Source: Geosiphon pyriformis uo1 (lineage: Eukaryota; Fungi; Glomeromycota). From it: DNA of 11,160 nucleotides. Below, piece after piece: positions 1 through 11,160 of this stretch (the first letter of the stretch is position 1; each line of letters begins with the position of its first letter). The notes below the pieces were generated by a model, which saw nothing but the letters and a program-made list of their open reading frames with translations, ran no database searches and was not told the DNA's origin. The stretch lies in NCBI GenBank assembly GCA_016748015.1, contig JAAOMT010000242.1:1-11160 (forward strand), in the 5' to 3' direction. A program made the position numbers and the translations under genes.

Positions 1-590
1 GCTAATAAAGAACAATGGCTATGATTGAAGCCTAAAGTTTGTAAGCTGATTCAAGAAAAAATTGTAATTTCTCAATCTAAACTTTCAAATTAACATCAAG
101 GCCATAATGTAATACTTAAAGAAATTAACAAAACACTCAAATTGTTGATTCCTTCTACACCTTTACAACAGCATTAGGAAATTGCAACATTTAACTGTAT
201 CAAATTTAAGAGATTGTATACTAACTTCTTTAATGTCATCAGATATTCTAAAAGTAAAATATACAGGTCTTGTACATGTTTTAGCTTTATTGCTGAATCA
301 AATTAATTTTGAGTTCAGATAAAAAAAACACAGTTTGTAAATCCAAATGTCTCTAATTGTGTTTTTCATGATATTGGTCATAAATAGATATTAAGCAAAG
401 AAATGAAAAAATTCAGTAAAATTACATGAATGAAAAAAATAGACTTTCTTAAAACAAGACAAATTAAGAAAACATTGTTAGGTACTTGGAAACCAATTCC
501 AGTAACAAGTGAAGAAACAGATCATCAAAAAATGTAAATTTGTTAATAAAATTACAACTATTATCTATTATTAACTCTCTAATACTTCTT
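1..590 (+). pseudogene. Decayed ORF of unknown function, 5'-truncated by the window; probably a relic of another repeat or transposon
   Basis: Frame +1 reads as protein-like sequence for about 178 codons (ANKEQWL*LKPKVCKLIQEKIVISQSKLSN*HQGHNVILKEINKTLKLLIPSTPLQQH*EIATFNC...GTWKPIPVTSEETDHQK). Its internal stops (TGA, TAA, TAG) are each one transition from CGA, CAA or TGG. There is an apparent frameshift near 535. I recognise no family, and the 3' end is approximate. Confidence 0.5.
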
Positions 591-1017
591 TTAAGTGATC
601 ATATTTTCAAAGCTTATCAAGTTAATTGTATGACAGCCTAATAAATATCCTTTAAGAAGTTAAAAATATATTGTATTGTGTACAGTTTTGTTTATGTTGA
701 GTTGGATGTATTACTATTTATAATTAGCATTTTTAAAACATGATATGTTGAGTCTATATCCAAATTTTCATTCTGTGTAATTATGTTTGGATTATGAAAA
801 GCATTCAACATGGATTTATTTGTCCCAAAAAAGTTGATTTTTAATACATCTTTAAAACTATCAGTCAAACTTTTGCTCACTAATACTAAATATTGATCAA
901 ATAATGAATATAATTGCTAGTATAGAGCCCTTTTTTAATCACGGATGCCAAAGTTGGTGTGAAAATGTATTTATTGGATATATATTAGAATCTTTATGCT
1001 CTGAGTTTTGTTACTGG

Positions 1018-1515
1018 TCACATTTCTTTTCTTAAAGAAAGGTAAATTTGAACTCTGTTCCCAGTTGATTTGGTCGAACAATGTCCTATTAACAAACTTG
1101 TTTCTAGAGAATCCCATTGGACCATTATTCTTGTTTGTAGATCTGTTAATTCCTTTTTCCAATATGGAAAAAAAGTAATCTTGTTAGCCAAAGTTTGATC
1201 TAGAGTAACTTTATCAATACTTGTAGCAACAGCCTCCAAAACACTACTAGCCTCTAAAGCACCACCAGTCTCCAAAGCACCAAGAACAATAGTACTATAC
1301 CATATGTCAACTATTATTAAAACTCTCATAATATCCGCAAACAAGCCAGATATAATAGTTCTATTATTGTCTTCTAATGACAGTAGTAGCTTATAAAGAA
1401 GAAGAGTAATTGAATGTTGTAATATTTCAGAAATTTTGTTTAGTGTTCTATAATTGTTTCCAGAAACTTCTCTAATTTTTTTTACTACTATAAAAAGAAT
1501 GATTTCTGTTGACAA
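1018..1515 (-). CDS. Possible hypothetical ORF or gene fragment (165 aa, non-ATG start)
   Basis: Longest ORF in the track and unusual for this AT content. It contains an in-frame 6-aa repeat (LGALET-GGALEA-SSVLEA). No recognisable domain. Confidence 0.25.
   Translation of the reverse strand: MSTEIILFIVVKKIREVSGNNYRTLNKISEILQHSITLLLYKLLLSLEDNNRTIISGLFADIMRVLIIVDIWYSTIVLGALETGGALEASSVLEAVATSIDKVTLDQTLANKITFFPYWKKELTDLQTRIMVQWDSLETSLLIGHCSTKSTGNRVQIYLSLRKEM
1231..1284. repeat. Three imperfect 18-bp tandem repeats
   Basis: agcctccaaaacactact / agcctctaaagcaccacc / agtctccaaagcaccaag. Confidence 0.8.
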
Positions 1516-1787
1516 TCAGAAAATCTCCCTGACTGTACATGTTTGATTAAATATGAGATAACATTTAATGTTTATATTTAATATCATATGATTATAGTGT
1601 AACTATAGAAAGTGAAAATTATTTATATTCTGCTATCATATTTGTGAAAATAAGGAATATAAGGAGATATATATAGTAAAAGTAACTATAAAAAGATAAT
1701 ATTATATATAAATGGTTTTGGTTTTTAAAAAAATGTGATTATAAGAAAATAGTGACTATAACCAGAGGAACTATAGAGAGAGTTCAC

Positions 1788-2071
1788 TGTAACTGGTAAA
1801 AAACCCAGGAATAAGAATAGAACACTCAAAGATTAAGGATAGCTTACCAGAAAAATTACCAGCTATTATGCTAAGAAAAAAATTTGATGGAATTGTGATT
1901 CCAGAAAGTGATAAATAAAACTACACTTGAATCTCTGTCTATTATACAAAAAACTCAATCAAAACTTTTAGACAACCAAAACCTTTAGATATTATCAACC
2001 TAATTCAGTTATCAAGTACCAAGTTATGAGTTTGTTATTTGATTTAAGACTCCAAATAATTACCTGTAACA
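1788..2071 (+). repeat. Candidate 5' LTR (about 284 bp)
   Basis: Ends TTACCTGTAACA at 2071, immediately before the PBS. TGTAACTGGTAA at 1788 matches the reverse complement of that end at 10/12 positions, giving TG...CA termini. A TATA/polyA-like GATAAATAAAA lies at about 1910-1920. The right end is well supported; the left end is not, because no second LTR is available and there is an alternative start at 1009. Confidence 0.45.
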
Positions 2072-2073
2072 TT

Positions 2074-2090
2074 TGGTGCTTCTTGTGAGA
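2074..2090 (+). promoter_or_regulatory. Primer-binding site, probably complementary to elongator tRNA-Met
   Basis: TGGTGCTTCTTGTGAGA starts 2 nt after the LTR-terminal CA. It resembles the reverse complement of eukaryotic elongator tRNA-Met 3' ends (TGGTGC-N5-GTGAGG pattern, recalled from memory). Confidence 0.65.
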
Positions 2091-2135
2091 TATAATTCAA
2101 CAGAAAACCAGCATCAATAACAATCATCTGAAACA

Positions 2136-4279
2136 GTGACAGAATCAGAAGAAATAAGAACAAACCACTTGAAATTTGCAAAATCTTTATTCTAGCATTA
2201 CAAAAGTCATCTCAGATTGACAAATAATAATTGGTCAGCAAAATTAGCTTTTAATTGCTATGTCAATGAAAAGATTATATATTATTTGGGAGGCCAAGGA
2301 GATCCAAAATTTGCCTTTAACAACTTTTTCAGTAAATTACTTCAAAGCATCATACTATCACAAAATTATCTATTTACACCACTAATTACAGAAATAAACA
2401 GAGAAATTAAAAAGTACACTAAACAAAAATTTTTTATTACTTTTGTTAACAAAGACAAAAGAAGATTACAAACACCAGCAGAAATTCCAAAACAAATACA
2501 ATTTGCTACATAGAAGAAACAGAGAGTGGATTCACTTGCTAATTTATTATATCATTACATACTCAGAAGTATTATCAATATAACATCAATAGACAAGTTC
2601 ACCACAAATGTGACAACACCACTAAACAGAATTCCATTCCAAAGTAAACAGAAAAAGCAAAGTTATTAGAAACCTATAGTGACTATTTTAAAAGATTTAA
2701 ATTACAATCTCCAATGCCATTAGAAGTTTGATTACCACTACCACAACCAGATTTTGGAGCTGCTAGTTCTTGAGAATTAACTGACTTTGAAGAAAAGGAA
2801 AATAACAATTAGGAAATTAATTATTTAAACCCAATTCCAGAAAATCTGGAAATTTAAACTTTAATTGTTCCAATTCAGCAAAATCAGAACAATCCAAATC
2901 CCACCATTATTAATCAATCAAACTTATCTCCAGAAATTATAATTAATCCACCATTAATTGTCCTGATTATTAAACAACAACACCAGCTACAACCATCATC
3001 TCAACAACAACTTCAACAGCAACCACCACCACAATTACAACAACAATTCATAATAGTACTAATAATCTATGCACTAATTGCCAAATTAAAAAAATTTACT
3101 AGCAAAGAGGATAATATTCAAACTTGGCTAAATGATGTTACCAAAGCAATAACAGTTAATAATTAGGATAACACCAGAGTTTTTCAAACAATTCCATATT
3201 TCTTGTAAGATACAGTTGACTTGTAGTACCAAAGCTTGGCACAGAAACTCCAAAATTTCAATAATTTCAAAGTAGAATTTTTGAAATATTTTAGTAATAA
3301 CAACAGCATCAATTGATTGGCAAATATCTTTACTACTATTAAACAAGAAAATACTGAAATCATCACTACTTATCTAAAATGCTTCCAACAAAATCTACAC
3401 CAAATTCAAGTCATTGATGCCAGTTATTTTACAGTAGCCCAAATTCTGAATCAATTTATTTACAGATTATGCAGCAGCATCCTACAACATGTACGTCTAT
3501 TACATTTAGCCATACTTTAAGCTGCAGTTACACATGCCAAAAACTTTGAATTAGCTGAACTCAAAGCCAATTATGCTCAAACTGTAAATTTAGTAATAAA
3601 CAGATTATCTGAATTGGATTCCAAATTGAAATAATTTATTAATTCAATTAACCAGAAATTGGAAGAATACTTAGTTAACAATTAGATTATTTATTAATTT
3701 CTACAATGATGTAATAATCAAGAAAACTCGAATTGTTTTCAAAACCAATCATATTTTTTATCATCAACCAATTAACTATAACAGCCAAAAATACTTACCT
3801 GCCATAATTGTAGTAAACTGCCATTATAATGGGAACTCATGATCAGAAAATCAATATTGAAACTTTGATTACTGATTTCAAACTCCATATTACTTACCAA
3901 TTAAGATCAATATTAACTCTATTACCCACAAATAACACAACAACCAATATACATACCTCCAATCTATTAAACACTAGCCTCAGTTATTTATCAACCACAG
4001 TCACCAGTAATGTATCAACAACTACTTATTTTAATACCACTATTAAACTCAGCTCAAATATCATCCAAAAATGCCAGACTAAGAATTACTTACATCCAAT
4101 AAAACTAGAAATTGGCAATAGTAATGTATTAACTGATTCCCAGTTTATCAAGTCAACCATCAGGATCTTGCTAACAGAGTTCAGGAATTGGGTATGTTCA
4201 AAACCCAAATTCCCAGAACTATTTAAGTCTTTTAATGACCCCAGAAAATGCCTCATTCAACAATTAAAAAACCAACTGA
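2136..4279 (+). pseudogene. gag: Gag region (N-terminal extension, Q/P tract, retrotransposon capsid domain at about 3065-3560, broken CCHC knuckle at 3800-3824, Q/P/Y-rich spacer)
   Basis: IAKLKKFTSKEDNIQTWLNDVTKAITVNN*...DL*YQSL...FNNFKVEFLKYF...IKQENTEIITTYLKCF matches the Retrotrans_gag/major homology region pattern. CHNC follows at 3800. It includes track ORFs 2217-2513 and 3317-3520. The start position is inferred. Confidence 0.85.
2975..3046 (+). repeat. CAA/CCA-rich low-complexity tract encoding poly-Gln/Pro in Gag
   Basis: caacaacaccagctacaaccatcatctcaacaacaacttcaacagcaaccaccaccacaattacaacaacaa = QQHQLQPSSQQQLQQQPPPQLQQQ. Confidence 0.8.
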
Positions 4280-4405
4280 ATGCTACTTACCAATAATATA
4301 CCTCTAGTAACTATTACTAATGACAAATTATTGGCTGCTATTTTTTTCTTTGAACTCAAAAAACCATCAGAAACTCTTTTATTCAGTGGAACCACTTTTA
4401 ATACA

Positions 4406-4770
4406 AAACCAATTATCACAATATATACCAATGCTAAAGTCAATGGTCAATTCATCAAATAATCTTAGACAGTAGTTCAGCAGACAGCATCATTACATGA
4501 CAACTTATAGACCAATTAAATCACCAAGTTGATTGTGCTGTCAGTGCCAGAATTATTACCACTAATAGAGCAATAAAAATGCCCATTGGAGAGATTGACA
4601 ACTTCTTTTTCAAAGTCATGGCATCATCATTTCAATCAAAGTATTGGTAATAAAAGCTACACAGTATCAAGCACTCATTGGTAATAACTGGCTGTCCAAA
4701 ACCAATGTAGTACTCAACTGGAACATCTAGAAGCTACAACTTAGCCAAAACAGCCAACACACATAAGTAC
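4406..4770 (+). pseudogene. Retropepsin-type aspartic protease domain (frameshifted)
   Basis: KPIITIYTNAKVNGQFIK, then a 1-nt frameshift, then ILDSSSADSII at 4462 (catalytic LDSG with G>A). The flap reads IITTNRAIKMPIGEI and the C-terminal motif ALIGNNWL starts at 4671. Confidence 0.88.
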
Positions 4771-5039
4771 TAGCAACTTGTAGTCATTTCAAGAGCACCA
4801 TGCCAGCACTGCTAACCAAATTCAAAAAAGAAACAACTAAACCTATTTAAGAAGCCTACCAAGTCTTATAGATTGATATTAACCACAATGAATTGCTGCC
4901 AATACTCTCTTGAAATGATAAGAAAAAAGAGAAAAAAGAAGACAAACTTAAAGAAACCACCACAAAAGAAATAACCAGTGGCTGGGAAAGGTTTTATTTA
5001 ACTGACATTAGACTAAAGCCACTGTATATACTACTTAGA

Positions 5040-5651
5040 TACAAAGACTATAAGAAAAAGCTGTCTTCTATGGGAGCTTGGGTTGTATCTAACAAAGATT
5101 ACTGAATACACATATACTATTACTGTAAGCTGTACTATTGTAAACACTATGGCTATCCAAAAAGACAAGGAAAGTAGAACAACAAATCATGTTTTGCTTA
5201 TGGGGAAACTTTTCTTGGCAAAGGAATATGGAATAACATTCCTGGTTGAAGAGAAACATGCAATATCTTGTGCCAATACATAATCCTTATAAATAATTAG
5301 ATCAGCAAAGAAACATCTTTTAATACTATATAGAACTGTGTTTTATTATACTTGGACAGTTATCTACATGATGAAAATAAGATCTGAAAAATAGCAAAAG
5401 CCAAAGTCAAAGATGTCTTACCTAGTAAAATTCTGGAAATAAAAAACAACCCACCAAAACCAATTGACATTATTCTTATTCTCAATTCAGATGTATTTCT
5501 TGATATCAAAACAGGCCCAGAAAAATTCCACAAACACTACCAAAACCTAGCATTAACCAAGAAAGAACAAAAACAATGGCTAAAACAATTAAATACACAA
5601 TTGTATAGATATTGCCTAATTCCCAATGATTTTGAATATTGTGATGATTGT
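5040..5651 (+). pseudogene. Cys-rich putative zinc-binding domain of unknown function inside Pol
   Basis: Paired Cys motifs, some decayed TGY>TAY: YKDY(5040)...CKLY(5124); CFAY(5190)...CNILC(5259); YRYC-x8-CDDC (5604-5651). The second copy restores several Cys (FLTC, CNALC, CKYC-x8-CDNC). Confidence 0.55.
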
Positions 5652-5735
5652 AATTTTGTTTACAATTCATTACCATGTATGATCTACACAATCTCTGAAG
5701 AAGACAAACCAATCAGCAGCTGCGAAATGGAATCA

Positions 5736-5870
5736 GAATTACTATTCAATTTCAATTCAAACTCTGATGACAATGACAAAAATAATGGTTCCAGTTCAGT
5801 CCAAAATAACAACACTAATAACAACAATTTAAACTCCAATTTAAATCTAGAACAATACATCACACTCCCT
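5736..5870 (+). repeat. Asn/Asp/Ser-rich low-complexity linker, present only in copy 1
   Basis: FNFNSNSDDNDKNNGSSSVQNNNTNNNNLNSNLNL within ORF 5601-5900. The 135 bp are absent from copy 2 at 7432/7433. Confidence 0.75.
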
Positions 5871-5924
5871 AATCTTTCTAAGGAGCAGAAACTAAAATAG
5901 TTCAATAATAATGATAAAAATATT

Positions 5925-6316
5925 ATGTCAAAACATGCACATAATACTAATGCAGAGTTTGATTTAAAATATCCAAGAAAAGATGTCATCAAATTAGAAC
6001 CACATTTGTGCATATGTATTGATCTAAAAGTAGCACTGGAAATTTTAGCAACAATAATGGTTCAACTAGTATTTAGGAGTAGTTTAATGAAAAAAAGAAT
6101 CAACATTAGAGAAAGAATAATTGATGCAGGATATATAGAAAATATCATTGCAATATTACAAAATGACTCAGAAAAAAAATATATTATTGAACCAAATAAA
6201 AAGATAGTACAGACAATATTTTTTTCTTTGGTTAAAATAGCTCAGTTAGTATTAGTAGAAAAAGAGAAAAATTAGAGATGACAGCAAAAGAAATAAGTGA
6301 ATTCAGATTCATAAGT
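5925..6316 (+). pseudogene. dut: Trimeric-type dUTPase domain, copy 1
   Basis: All five motifs are present in order with transition damage: I AEFDL (AGFDL), II RSSL, III RERIIDAGYIENI (GGIIDAGYxGNI), IV KIVQTIF (KIAQAIF), and V TAKEISEFRFIS (TARGxxGFGSTG) after a frameshift near 6265. Confidence 0.9.
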
Positions 6317-6872
6317 AGAATAAACATATTAGTTAACATGGCAAAAGAAGAAGTTATTGACAAGAGAGAAATTATTTCCACCTGTTAATCAATTTTTATT
6401 CTGCCATATGATCAGTACATATTAGTCATAGAAAAAAAAGTAAAGAATCAAGACCAAATTTTTGAAGTAGAAATCACAATTTGTAAATCAGAAAAGATTG
6501 GACTTACCAATTTTTACATACAAGCCAAAAGCCTAAAACACATAAAAATTCCCATTTACAACACAACTAGAAAAGTTATCAAAATACCAAAAAGAATCAT
6601 CATCAAATATATAAGCACAGAAGTTAAGAATTAACTACTAAGTATTATCCCAGATTTTCTACAACTTTGTGAATATATAGATATCACATTACAAACAATA
6701 TACAGACAAAAAAAATATTATTTGCTCCAATCAGAACAATTGGAACAAATGAACTTGGGAAACTTAGATCCACTCTAATGGATACAACTTAAAATATTAC
6801 TTAACAATTTTATTGATATTTTTGCCAGTAAAAATAAATTTGGCCAAACTGATATCATCCAGCATCAAATTA

Positions 6873-8432
6873 AGAACAATAAATCATTTCTTACTTGTGA
6901 GAAAACTTTACTTAACAAAAAAATATAGAATAACATTTTTGGTCAAGAAAAAATGTGTAATGCTTTATGCCAATATACAATTCTTATTAGTGACTAGATA
7001 AGCAGAAGAATGTTTTTTAATACTACAAAAAACCAAGCACTCTTATGCTTGAACAGTTATTTACATAATAAAGATAAGATTTGACAAATAGCAAGTATTA
7101 AAGTTAAAAGTGCTTTACTTAATGAGATATTCACAATTAAAAACAACCCACCAGAACTTATTAAAACCATTTTTATTTCAAACTCAGACAGCTTTGTTGA
7201 CATTTTGAGCAATTCAAAACAATTCTATAAATACTACCAAGATTTAATACTTACTTAAGAAGAACAAAAGCAGTATTTAAAGCAATTAAATACTAGATTC
7301 TGTAAATATTGTCTAATTTTCAATAACTTTAAATATTGTGATAATTGTGATCTTATTTACAATCTACTATTATGTATAATTTATTCAATTTTCAAAAAAA
7401 AAAAATTAATTAGCAATTGTACTTAGAAATCAAATTTATCAATAAAATAGGAACTTAAATAATTCAGTAATAATAATAAAAATATTATGCCAGAATGCAT
7501 ACATAATATAAATACAAAATTTGATTTCAGATATTCAAAAAAAACTGCCATTAGATTAGAATCTCATTCATATACCAGCATATATTTAAAAATAGCACTA
7601 GAAATTTTGGCAATAACAATAATTTAATTAGTGTTTAGATCTAGTTTAGTAAAAAAAAAATTAATATTAAAGAAGAAATAATTAATGCAGAATATGTAAA
7701 AAATATTATTGTAATATTACAAAATAAATTAGAGAAGACATATATTATCAAACCAAATAAAAAAATAACACAGGCAATATTTTTACCTCTGGTAAAAATA
7801 GCTCAATTAGTGTTAATAAAAACAAAAAAAAAGTTAAAAATAACAACAAGAGAAGAAAAATGATTTGAATTAACAAATAAAATAGAAGTATTAATTAATA
7901 TGACAGAAAAAAAACCATTAATTAGAGAGAAATAATTTCTATCAATTAATCAATTTCTATTCTACTATATAACCAATATATATTATCATAAAGAGAAAAG
8001 TAAAAGATTAACTCCAAAATTTAAATTAGAACTTATCATTTATAAATTAAAAAAGATTATTATTATCAATTTTTATATACTAACCAAAAACTATAAACAC
8101 ATTAAAATCTCAATACACAACACAATTGAAAACTTAATTAAAATATTAAATGAAATTATCATTAGATACTTAAGCATTGAAGTTGAAAACCAACTACCAA
8201 CCACCATTCCAAACTTTCTACAACTGTGTAAATATGTAAATATTATATCACAAACAATATATAGATAAAAAAAATATTATTTGCTATAACCAAAACAGTT
8301 AGAGCAAATAAACTTGAGAAACTTAGACTTATTTTAATATATACAGCTCAAAATGCTACTCAACAATTTCATTAATATTTTTGCCAGAAAAAACAAATTT
8401 GGAAGAACTAATATTATTTAGTACTAGATTAA
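6873..8432 (+). repeat. Internal tandem duplication, copy 2 (about 1.56 kb), continuing into RT
   Basis: Colinear with 5176-6872 apart from the 135-bp linker. It ends FARKNKFGRTNII*Y*IK and runs on into TGDTISIK at the RT N-terminus. Confidence 0.92.
7487..7878 (+). pseudogene. dut: dUTPase domain, copy 2 (more decayed)
   Basis: MPECIHNINTKFDFRYSKK...FRSSLVKK...EEIINAEYVKNIIVILQN...KITQAIFLPLVKIAQLV...TTREEK*FELTN, homologous to copy 1 throughout. Confidence 0.85.
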
Positions 8433-8433
8433 A

Positions 8434-9290
8434 ACTGGAGATACAATATCAATTAAATAATAAACATACCAAATACTACCAACCAGCCATAAAATTATCT
8501 GACAAGAAATTAACTAAATATTGAACAATAAGTTAATTTAATTATCAATAGGTTTATAATTATCATCAGTAGTATTTGTCCAAAAAAAAATGAAAGATCT
8601 GCTTTTGTGTAGATTACTGAAAACTTAATAGTATTATTCATAGAAATAGCTATTCAATGCTTCTGGAGGAAAAAAATAGTTCTTAATATTGGACTTAGAT
8701 AGTAATTACTGGCAAATAGCCATAAATTCAACCAATAAAAAAAACAGTATTTACCACTAGAGAAATAAATTTTGAATTTAACATTATGTCTTTTGGCTTA
8801 ACTAATACTTCCACTACTTTTCAATGGTTAATGGAAATTATCTATACAAGATTACTATGGAAATTAATAATAGTTTACTTGGATAACACAAACATATTCT
8901 TTAAAATATTTGATAATTATTTTTATCATCTTTATTATGTATTTAAAAAGTTAAAAAGAATAGGATTAAAGTTGAATACTAATAAGTATTTTTTTGAAAA
9001 AACTGAGCTTAAGTTTTTGGAACATATTATGAGCAAAAACAGCATTAAAACAAATCCAGATAAAATCAAAATAGTTAAAAACTTTCCAGTATCAATAAAC
9101 TTAATAAAGCTAAAAACATTCTTAAAATTTGCTAAATACTACTGTCACTTTATCCAAAATTTTTCCAAACTGGCTCAACCATTTTACTAGCTCTAAGCAA
9201 AGAACATTAAATATAAATAGACTAAAAATCAACAAAAAGTTTTTGACATACTGCAAAGAAAGCTTATTCAAGCTTTAGTATTGATTTATT
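8434..9290 (+). pseudogene. pol: Reverse transcriptase (Ty3/Gypsy type), inactivated
   Basis: SSVVFVQKK, FCVDY*KLN (8603), LDLDSNYWQI (8689), MSFGLTNTSTTFQWLM (8786), YLDN at 8876-8887 (YLDD with G>A), GLKLNTNKYFF...KFLEH, and thumb LKTFLKFAKYYCHFIQNFSKLAQPFY. Confidence 0.95.
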
Positions 9291-9299
9291 CAAATTACA

Positions 9300-9666
9300 G
9301 CAAACTATTTATTATTATTATTAATGTATTAAACCAAATATTAAGAGTTATATGGTCACAAAAAAGAATAGATAAATGAAAACATCTAGTAGCATATGTC
9401 AGCTGAAGTTTAATTTTAGCTAAAAAAAATTATAAAACTCCAGCATCAAAACATTTAACTATCTATTGAATTATTATAAAATAAAAAAAATACTTGAATT
9501 AAAAGTTTGATTTATATATTATTACAAAAAATTGACATCAATCTAAAAGCAAAAATTTAGAAACAATTATTATATAAGATAGAAAATAGAACTATTACTA
9601 TTTAAATATACAGTACATTATAAAAATGGAAAAAAAAATGGAAATATTGACAAATTATTACAAATA
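9300..9666 (+). pseudogene. pol: RNase H domain, inactivated
   Basis: KLFIIIINVLNQILRVIWSQ (about PFIxxTDASxxGLGAILSQ), HLVAYVS*SLILAKKNY (about HPVAYASRSLxxAEKNY), and YKNGKKNGNIDKLLQ (about YRxGKxNxNADxLSR). Confidence 0.88.
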
Positions 9667-9799
9667 AGACAAATCTAAAACCATTTTAACCCAAAAATAT
9701 AATAAAAGATGAATATACAAAAATATCACAACTTCAATATTATATTAATATTTAATAATTCAAGAAGAAATTATCTTAAAAAAAACAAAATTATATAAA

Positions 9800-10915
9800 A
9801 CAACAATCAAAATATTTTATTATTTAACAAAATATATTATATTAAAAAAACAGAAAAAATTCAGATTAACCACTCAAAATAATTACAGAACCAGAAAAAA
9901 AAACAATATTATTTAATATACACTCAAATTCAACTGCCAGACATTTTTATAAAAAAACAATCATAGAAAGAACCAGAAAAAGATACTATTAGTTATTAAT
10001 ATATTTAAAGTTGTAATGCTTATTAAAGAAAATAAAAAATAAAACCCAGTAAATTACTAAAACCAATTAAAGTAAAACAACCATTCAATTAAATTGAAAT
10101 TAACTTAGTCAGATCATTAACAATAATCAGTAAAAACAACCAATATATAATAATAGCTATAAACTATCTCACAAAATAGCCAGAAATTAAAGCAATTCAA
10201 AGAACAGATATAGAATTTATTGTCAAATTTGTATATCAAGATTTAATTTGTCAACACAAATATTCAAAAAATTGTTATTAAATCAAAAAATTCACTTTGT
10301 AAACAAAACATTAACAGAATTAAATTAGAGATTTGAAATTAAAAAACTATTATCATTATCATATTATCTACAAACCAATAACTTAGTCAAAAAGTTTAAC
10401 AAAATATTATTTGAAGTAATAGCCAAGATCAGTCAAAAAAACCAAGACAAATAAAATTTGTTTATAAGACAATAAAGCAAGATACTACATAAACAACATC
10501 ATTTAAACTAGTCTATGATAAAATAGCAATATTATTAGTTGAGATAAAAATTAATATATATTTAACTGAACCAATAACAAAAGCCAACTTTTAAGAAACA
10601 TTGTTAAAAAAAACATATGACTTAATGAAAACTCTAAAAAACAAAAAGCAAAAAACAGCTGATAACATATAAAAATTACAAAAAAAACAACATAATAACT
10701 GGTTACCAAATAAACCAGCTGAATTCAAAATTGAAGACAAAGTATTTTTATATTGTACCAAAATAAAAAAACAATAAAATAGAAAATTTGATCTTAAATA
10801 ATATAGTTTATTTTATATTGAAAATTTTTTGAAAAATAAAGCATATAAGTTAAAATGAAACAACAAAATCTTAGCCAAAGCAGTACATGATAATCAACTA
10901 AAACCATATTACAAT
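9800..10915 (+). pseudogene. pol: Integrase (HHCC zinc finger, DDE core, GPF/Y C-terminal module), inactivated
   Basis: HSNSTARHF (His at 9921 and 9942) and SCNAY (10012). The core reads IEINLVRSL (10093), LLLNQKIHF (10272) and QTNNLVKKFN (10389), with exact D-35-E spacing between 10281 and 10389. The C-terminal module reads FKIEDKVFLY...KFDLK*YSLFYI...AYKL...VHDNQLKPY. Confidence 0.92.
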
Positions 10916-11160
10916 ATAGTATCATTATCTACCAGTAATATTTTACAATTGGAAGTACAACAAATACTAGTCAAACCAGATAAAATTTCACAAAATTTGA
11001 AACCAATCATAATCATTAAAACAAACATGTTAAATTAATTAATCAAAACAGTATATAAAAAATAAATGCACATAATAAAAGCAATAGTAAAAATAAAAAT
11101 TACTAACAACATTCATTTACTTGTACAATAATTTTTACAATTTATCTAACATTAAAAATC

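Follow-up and report, generated by a model that had tools for sequence, protein, structure and literature searches.

A conserved cysteine-rich module between protease and dUTPase in Ty3/Gypsy retrotransposons of Geosiphon pyriformis

The DNA analyzed here, an 11,160-nucleotide stretch from the fungus Geosiphon pyriformis uo1 (contig JAAOMT010000242.1, positions 1 to 11,160; henceforth the window), represents the decayed interior of a Ty3/Gypsy long terminal repeat (LTR) retrotransposon on the plus strand, to which all features below belong unless noted. Between the aspartic protease (4406..4770, approximate limits) and the dUTPase (5925..6263; PF00692, E 5.5e-7) lies an accessory module of about 210 residues (5016..5660), interrupted by six in-frame stops and carrying Tyr at five Cys codons. 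It comprises three Cys clusters, namely finger 1 (CxxC-x24-CxxC, 5040..5135), finger 2 (CxxC-x19-CxxxC, 5190..5273) and finger 3 (CxxC-x8-CxxC, 5604..5651). Between fingers 2 and 3, a structural model and invariant columns outline a core of four predicted helices, a hypervariable acidic segment and two more helices (5274..5603). An Asn/Ser/Asp-rich linker, recognized from its sequence (5724..5900), leads on to the dUTPase. The protease runs through frames 2, 1 and 3 with two frameshifts, collinear with the protease of the intact relative P0114 (tblastn E 3e-66).

The preliminary description of this DNA, made from the letters alone, had given the coordinates and spacings of the three clusters exactly. 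As read, they are Y-x2-Y-x24-C-x2-Y, C-x2-Y-x19-C-x3-C and Y-x2-C-x8-C-x2-C, all in the frame that links the last part of the protease to the dUTPase, with Tyr at five of the 12 ligand positions (5040, 5049, 5133, 5199 and 5604). Patterns that allow Tyr are expected by chance 0.19-0.24 times each per window, and the strict finger 3 pattern 0.005 times; taken alone, the Tyr-allowed patterns in the window are weak evidence. These expectations would suit motifs that arose by chance, because Tyr codons were taken for Cys in hypermutated, AT-rich DNA, but this origin is refuted by the relatives of the element and its probability is close to nil. A profile search of 1.84 billion representatives returned 386 matches at E<=0.001, of which the best 150 were covered. 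We aligned 279 proteins, 272 of which fall into seven subfamilies (97, 112, 32, 10, 10, 10 and 1 members). Across the 12 ligand columns of these 272 relatives, 1437 of 1579 cells hold Cys, 100 Tyr and 42 another residue, and Cys is the majority residue at all 12 positions in every subfamily; P0114 has all 12. Cys, as originally proposed, and not Tyr is thus ancestral. For the first Cys of finger 1, the window's own subfamily has 13 Cys and 5 Tyr (n=18), and finger 3 contains a fifth Cys that is the majority residue in six of the seven subfamilies.

Copies within a subfamily decay after insertion, and the informative test of selection therefore lies between subfamilies, which are mutually 40-69% identical. 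A single majority residue is shared by 49 of the 202 columns covered in all seven, including the 12 ligand Cys. P0114 has 17 Cys columns, 12 of them invariant, vs 37 of the 185 other columns (Fisher p 3e-5, a value that overstates independence, as the subfamilies are related to one another and one has a single member). Subfamily majorities are 44-51% identical to P0114 in the module, 56-67% in the protease, 53-64% in the dUTPase and 24-35% in the downstream linker. The module is almost certainly real and under purifying selection, judging from these comparisons of sequence.

P0114, encoded on a 19-kb metagenomic ENA contig, matches Asp_protease_2 and is collinear with window positions 3920-6260. 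Because its open reading frame (ORF) passes unbroken through the protease, a module with all 12 Cys, the dUTPase and the start of the reverse transcriptase (RT), the module is evidently part of the polyprotein and not a product of decay or gene-model stitching. The frame in the window, the 272 relatives and the intact P0114 together bear out the earlier proposal that an unannotated domain rich in Cys separates protease and dUTPase, and show this domain to be conserved. P0114 also makes the module directly testable in an unbroken natural form.

Among the matches covered, the best 150 of 386 in the profile search, the range is one named species plus this one metagenomic contig. All named relatives are G. 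pyriformis gene models (37 of 37; 120 of 120 among the matches listed, out of 183; 19 of 20 in individual look-ups; 4 of 4 in a further set, the query excluded), and searches of JGI metagenomes, IMG/VR, GTDB and phages did not find the module. Such a narrow range would be in keeping with a structural spacer, or a passenger captured with the dUTPase, that is retained only since its folding serves polyprotein processing; to our knowledge, most fungal Gypsy elements lack such a module. A dispensable spacer would, however, be expected to shrink or drift, whereas here 12 Cys and 37 other columns were kept across the divergent subfamilies and the flanking linkers were not, which makes this explanation distinctly unlikely. 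Hundreds of proteins annotated as hypothetical among the G. pyriformis models (P0003-P0280) represent decayed copies of the element, apparently stitched around stops. A module without a catalogued family thus occurs in hundreds of gene models labelled as hypothetical fungal proteins, and such stitched copies would inflate gene-family counts of dUTPases and aspartic proteases.

The decay of the window can be followed in a second copy (6873..8440), which corresponds to 5176-6877, is 72% identical and has neither finger 1 nor 135 nt of the linker sequence, extending from finger 2 to the start of the RT. Its finger 2 (6887..6970) has Phe at the first ligand and Cys at the other three, and its finger 3 (7301..7348) is an intact C-x2-C-x8-C-x2-C. 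Transitions on both strands account for 341 of the 436 differences between the copies, with 115 G>A and 103 C>T, so that the damage is not of the G>A type only, as had been assumed. CpG is nearly lacking in the window (observed/expected 0.03), and the Cys-to-Tyr and Trp-to-stop changes fall at TpG or GpG, that is, they are non-CpG transitions. A process resembling repeat-induced point mutation, or one linked to non-CpG methylation, may be active in the host. The suggestion that Trp codons are interspersed agrees with most of the stops in the module: in the window's subfamily, five of the six correspond to Trp columns and the remaining one, at 5247, to an Arg column. Copy 2 starts just before finger 2, and at the junction (6873) it directly follows the initial RT residues of copy 1. 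As a K-T-x-F variant is common to copy 2 and P0079 and absent from copy 1, copy 2 may have come from another element that became joined to the first instead of arising by duplication in place.

Related contigs of run X1, which is possibly the window's own source and hence not independent of it, carry G, the Cys-type base, at 5134 in 72% of depth (14 contigs), at 5200 in 83% (41 contigs) and at 5050 in 46% (23 contigs), with 5041 absent from the variant listing at a 20% threshold. Between 4950 and 5750, no fewer than 38 joints occur in these contigs, marking internal deletions that reach ~300 nt, and each listed joint comes from one contig; many internally deleted copies exist among them.

We extend the three-finger picture of the preliminary description, which had missed the helical core (model residues 81-140, predicted local distance difference test (pLDDT) 84-91): the ~105 residues between fingers 2 and 3 form a conserved helical part, and fingers and core are one ~210-residue module. 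With its conserved columns and confidently modeled core, the region is neither unconserved nor disordered across copies. The 12 conserved Cys make zinc binding likely, and the model predicts a treble-clef fold for finger 1 in addition to the helical core, with the second Cys pair of finger 2 at the start of the first core helix. No significant match to the module was obtained in Pfam, PHROGs, NCBIfam, PDB or BFVD. The top Foldseek rows were the LIM domain of Isl1 (E 0.12) and GATA1 (E 0.16), and finger 1 (model residues 1-45) superposed weakly on LIM and Ada2 chains with a root mean square deviation (rmsd) of 1.6-2.1 A over 37-40 residues.

Treble-clef fingers (LIM of TES, LMO2, Isl1 and FHL2, the Ada2 N-terminal finger, FYVE and GATA) are among the closest known counterparts, and the treble-clef reading put forward earlier is compatible with the finger 1 model and the secondary structure of finger 2. 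Its MYM/TRASH (zf-FCS) label finds no Pfam match: none of 17 members match at E<=10, and the second half reads G-x-C-D-x2-C, where zf-FCS fingers have FCSxxC. LIM domains pair two fingers, separated by two residues, and use a His ligand; here 18 profile columns separate fingers 1 and 2, there is no His ligand, and one of 17 members matched at E 3.1. GATA fingers (CxxC-x17/18-CxxC plus a basic tail) differ in spacing from the module, with its spacers of 24 and 19.

The module as a whole is net acidic in all seven subfamilies (-8 to -20); its first two core helices are near neutral and helices 3-4 acidic. Among the fingers, finger 1 alone is basic throughout (+3 to +7 in 7/7 subfamilies); its Lys residues at columns 11, 12 and 50 are invariant, and it is therefore the only part that looks like a nucleic-acid binder. 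In trees built from 30 of the 71 eligible proteins, module and dUTPase show the same deep branching, G,D,E,(F,A,B,C), the one discrepancy being F, which the dUTPase tree places among A/B/C; on these trees, the module is co-inherited with the dUTPase.

Finger 1, in turn, seems to have a history of its own. In its tree, subfamily A, to which the window belongs, groups with the distant D (support 99/94); in the rest of the module, A groups with B and C (100/99), and A+D is rejected (approximately unbiased test, p-AU 1e-4). The reverse constraint on finger 1 was not formally rejected (p-AU 0.054, 57 columns). These trees used 30 of 54 eligible rows, P0265 being among those omitted. Sliding identity places A nearer D than B only over the upstream linker and finger 1, and since the A+D grouping is limited to this part, unlike the rest of the module, finger 1 was likely exchanged between subfamilies by recombination.

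Our favored reading of the module's function, to which we assign a probability of roughly 0.4, is that it stays on the dUTPase and tethers the enzyme to RNA or newly made cDNA of the element while reverse transcription proceeds. The protease would be cleaved off while the module is not cut from the dUTPase, each dUTPase trimer would thereby carry three module arms, finger 1 would make the contact with RNA or cDNA, and an enzyme held near the cDNA would cause less uracil to be incorporated. The logic follows two precedents: the betaretroviral nucleocapsid (NC)-dUTPase fusion, described as uncleaved, nucleic-acid binding and able to hydrolyse dUTP (PMC1802613), and the extra zinc knuckle reported behind the dUTPase of bdelloid Juno elements (PMC5408684). 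By the account in PMC1802613, the NC-dUTPase of Mason-Pfizer monkey virus and mouse mammary tumor virus likewise places zinc-ligand motifs N-terminal to a trimeric dUTPase via a flexible linker. Its motifs, however, are CCHC nucleocapsid knuckles joined by the gag-pro frameshift, upstream of the protease, whereas the module here has C4 motifs and a helical core, is net acidic and lies downstream of the protease. If the tether holds true, retrotransposons and betaretroviruses reached the same solution independently.

Acidity, the LIM-like shape of finger 1, fast divergence and the swap mean that an adaptor for a host protein or chromatin mark fits nearly as well as the tether. Such an adaptor, which we regard as possible but rather unlikely, would accompany the cDNA complex and guide its entry into the nucleus or its integration, or would counteract a restriction factor of the host. 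Besides the superposition on LIM and Ada2 fingers, P0255 gives a weak PHD-like Pfam match below cutoff (E 0.0065, 17.1 bits vs 29.1), and in the young subfamilies A, B and C the module is only 66-71% identical vs 88-94% for protease and dUTPase, with 10-43% in its variable segment. Yet reader domains gave no significant match, other non-enzymatic parts diverge too (Gag knuckle region 45-61%, post-dUTPase domain 71-82%), and a finger swap can be a neutral template switch. Were binding of a host factor true, the module would point to how fungi restrict such elements.

A family-specific anti-silencing factor that binds its own element's DNA and shields it from methylation-driven decay, in the manner of VANC, appears less probable still: helices 3-4 are acidic, no match rises above background, decay has affected every named copy seen, and the inside of Pol would be an odd site for a nuclear trans-acting factor. 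Also doubtful, in our view, is a broader proposal in which the module would be an undescribed, Pol-embedded counter-defence or targeting factor whose exchangeable finger 1 sets family specificity, which aided expansion of the lineage in a CpG-erasing genome, and which represents one case among several in which fungal Gypsy elements independently captured zinc fingers at the site between protease and dUTPase.

Coming back to the tether and the element that would use it, dUTPase-bearing Ty3/Gypsy elements as a type are already known, and the uncatalogued, selected accessory module is new. The dUTPase lies between protease and RT, as here, in PosPlaTy3-5 of Postia placenta, which is reported together with elements of Phanerochaete and Tuber (PMC2864245), and in the bdelloid families Juno, Vesta and TelKA (PMC5408684). 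The portions of these two reports that deal with such elements describe no multi-finger helical module ahead of the dUTPase; Juno has a single knuckle behind it, where our element has several fingers in front. PMC3248453, in the part available, mentions added domains only in general, and our literature search found no description of this module. Lineage-specific extra functions of mobile elements, as outlined in the respective reports, include CERV of Cer1, whose candidate C4 finger is needed for genomic RNA export (PMC10309623), the anti-silencing protein VANC, which acts in family-specific demethylation through a tandem motif (PMC6719617), and the AlkB of an orchid Gypsy element, an accessory transposon function (PMC9289625). 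By their descriptions, these are separate or spliced ORFs, unlike the module, which is inside the polyprotein. No homology between the module and these proteins was shown, though no comparison aimed at it was made. PMC9289625 considers it rare for an LTR retrotransposon to fix an additional domain, few transposon counter-defence factors are known according to PMC6719617, and LTR sequence is given as 41.2% of the genome that carries the module (PMC11952901).

Gag, RT and RNase H in the window agree with a Ty3/Gypsy element. A Gag capsid core (Retrotrans_gag, 3236..3409) matches PF03732 just above cutoff (E 4e-5, 24.2 bits vs 24.1), and PF19259 (Ty3_capsid) is listed for relatives. Downstream, a decayed RT and RNase H (8576..9481; RVT_1 E 2.7e-8, RT_RNaseH_2 E 6.9e-10; tblastn with P0114) complete the protease, RT, RNase H order of Ty3/Gypsy, and the RT of P0114 has Ty3-G as its best match among solved structures (E 2e-38). 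What we take to be an integrase-like remnant (10040..10930) was spotted by eye in the translation from typical motifs only, and Pfam and PDB searches of it gave no match; the window ends close to it.

Between dUTPase and RT (6280-6870 and 7870-8430) lies a further domain of ~135 residues without a Pfam match, 27-31% identical to P0114 across subfamilies, which resembles the degenerate dUTPase-like domain known from the Pol proteins of other Gypsy elements. On the 5' side of the Gag region, the minus strand contains a 165-codon stop-free frame with short repeats (LGALETGGALEASSVLEA) at 1018-1515, and a 17-nt motif occurs three times, ~84 nt apart, at 1596-1780, possibly as part of an LTR or leader.
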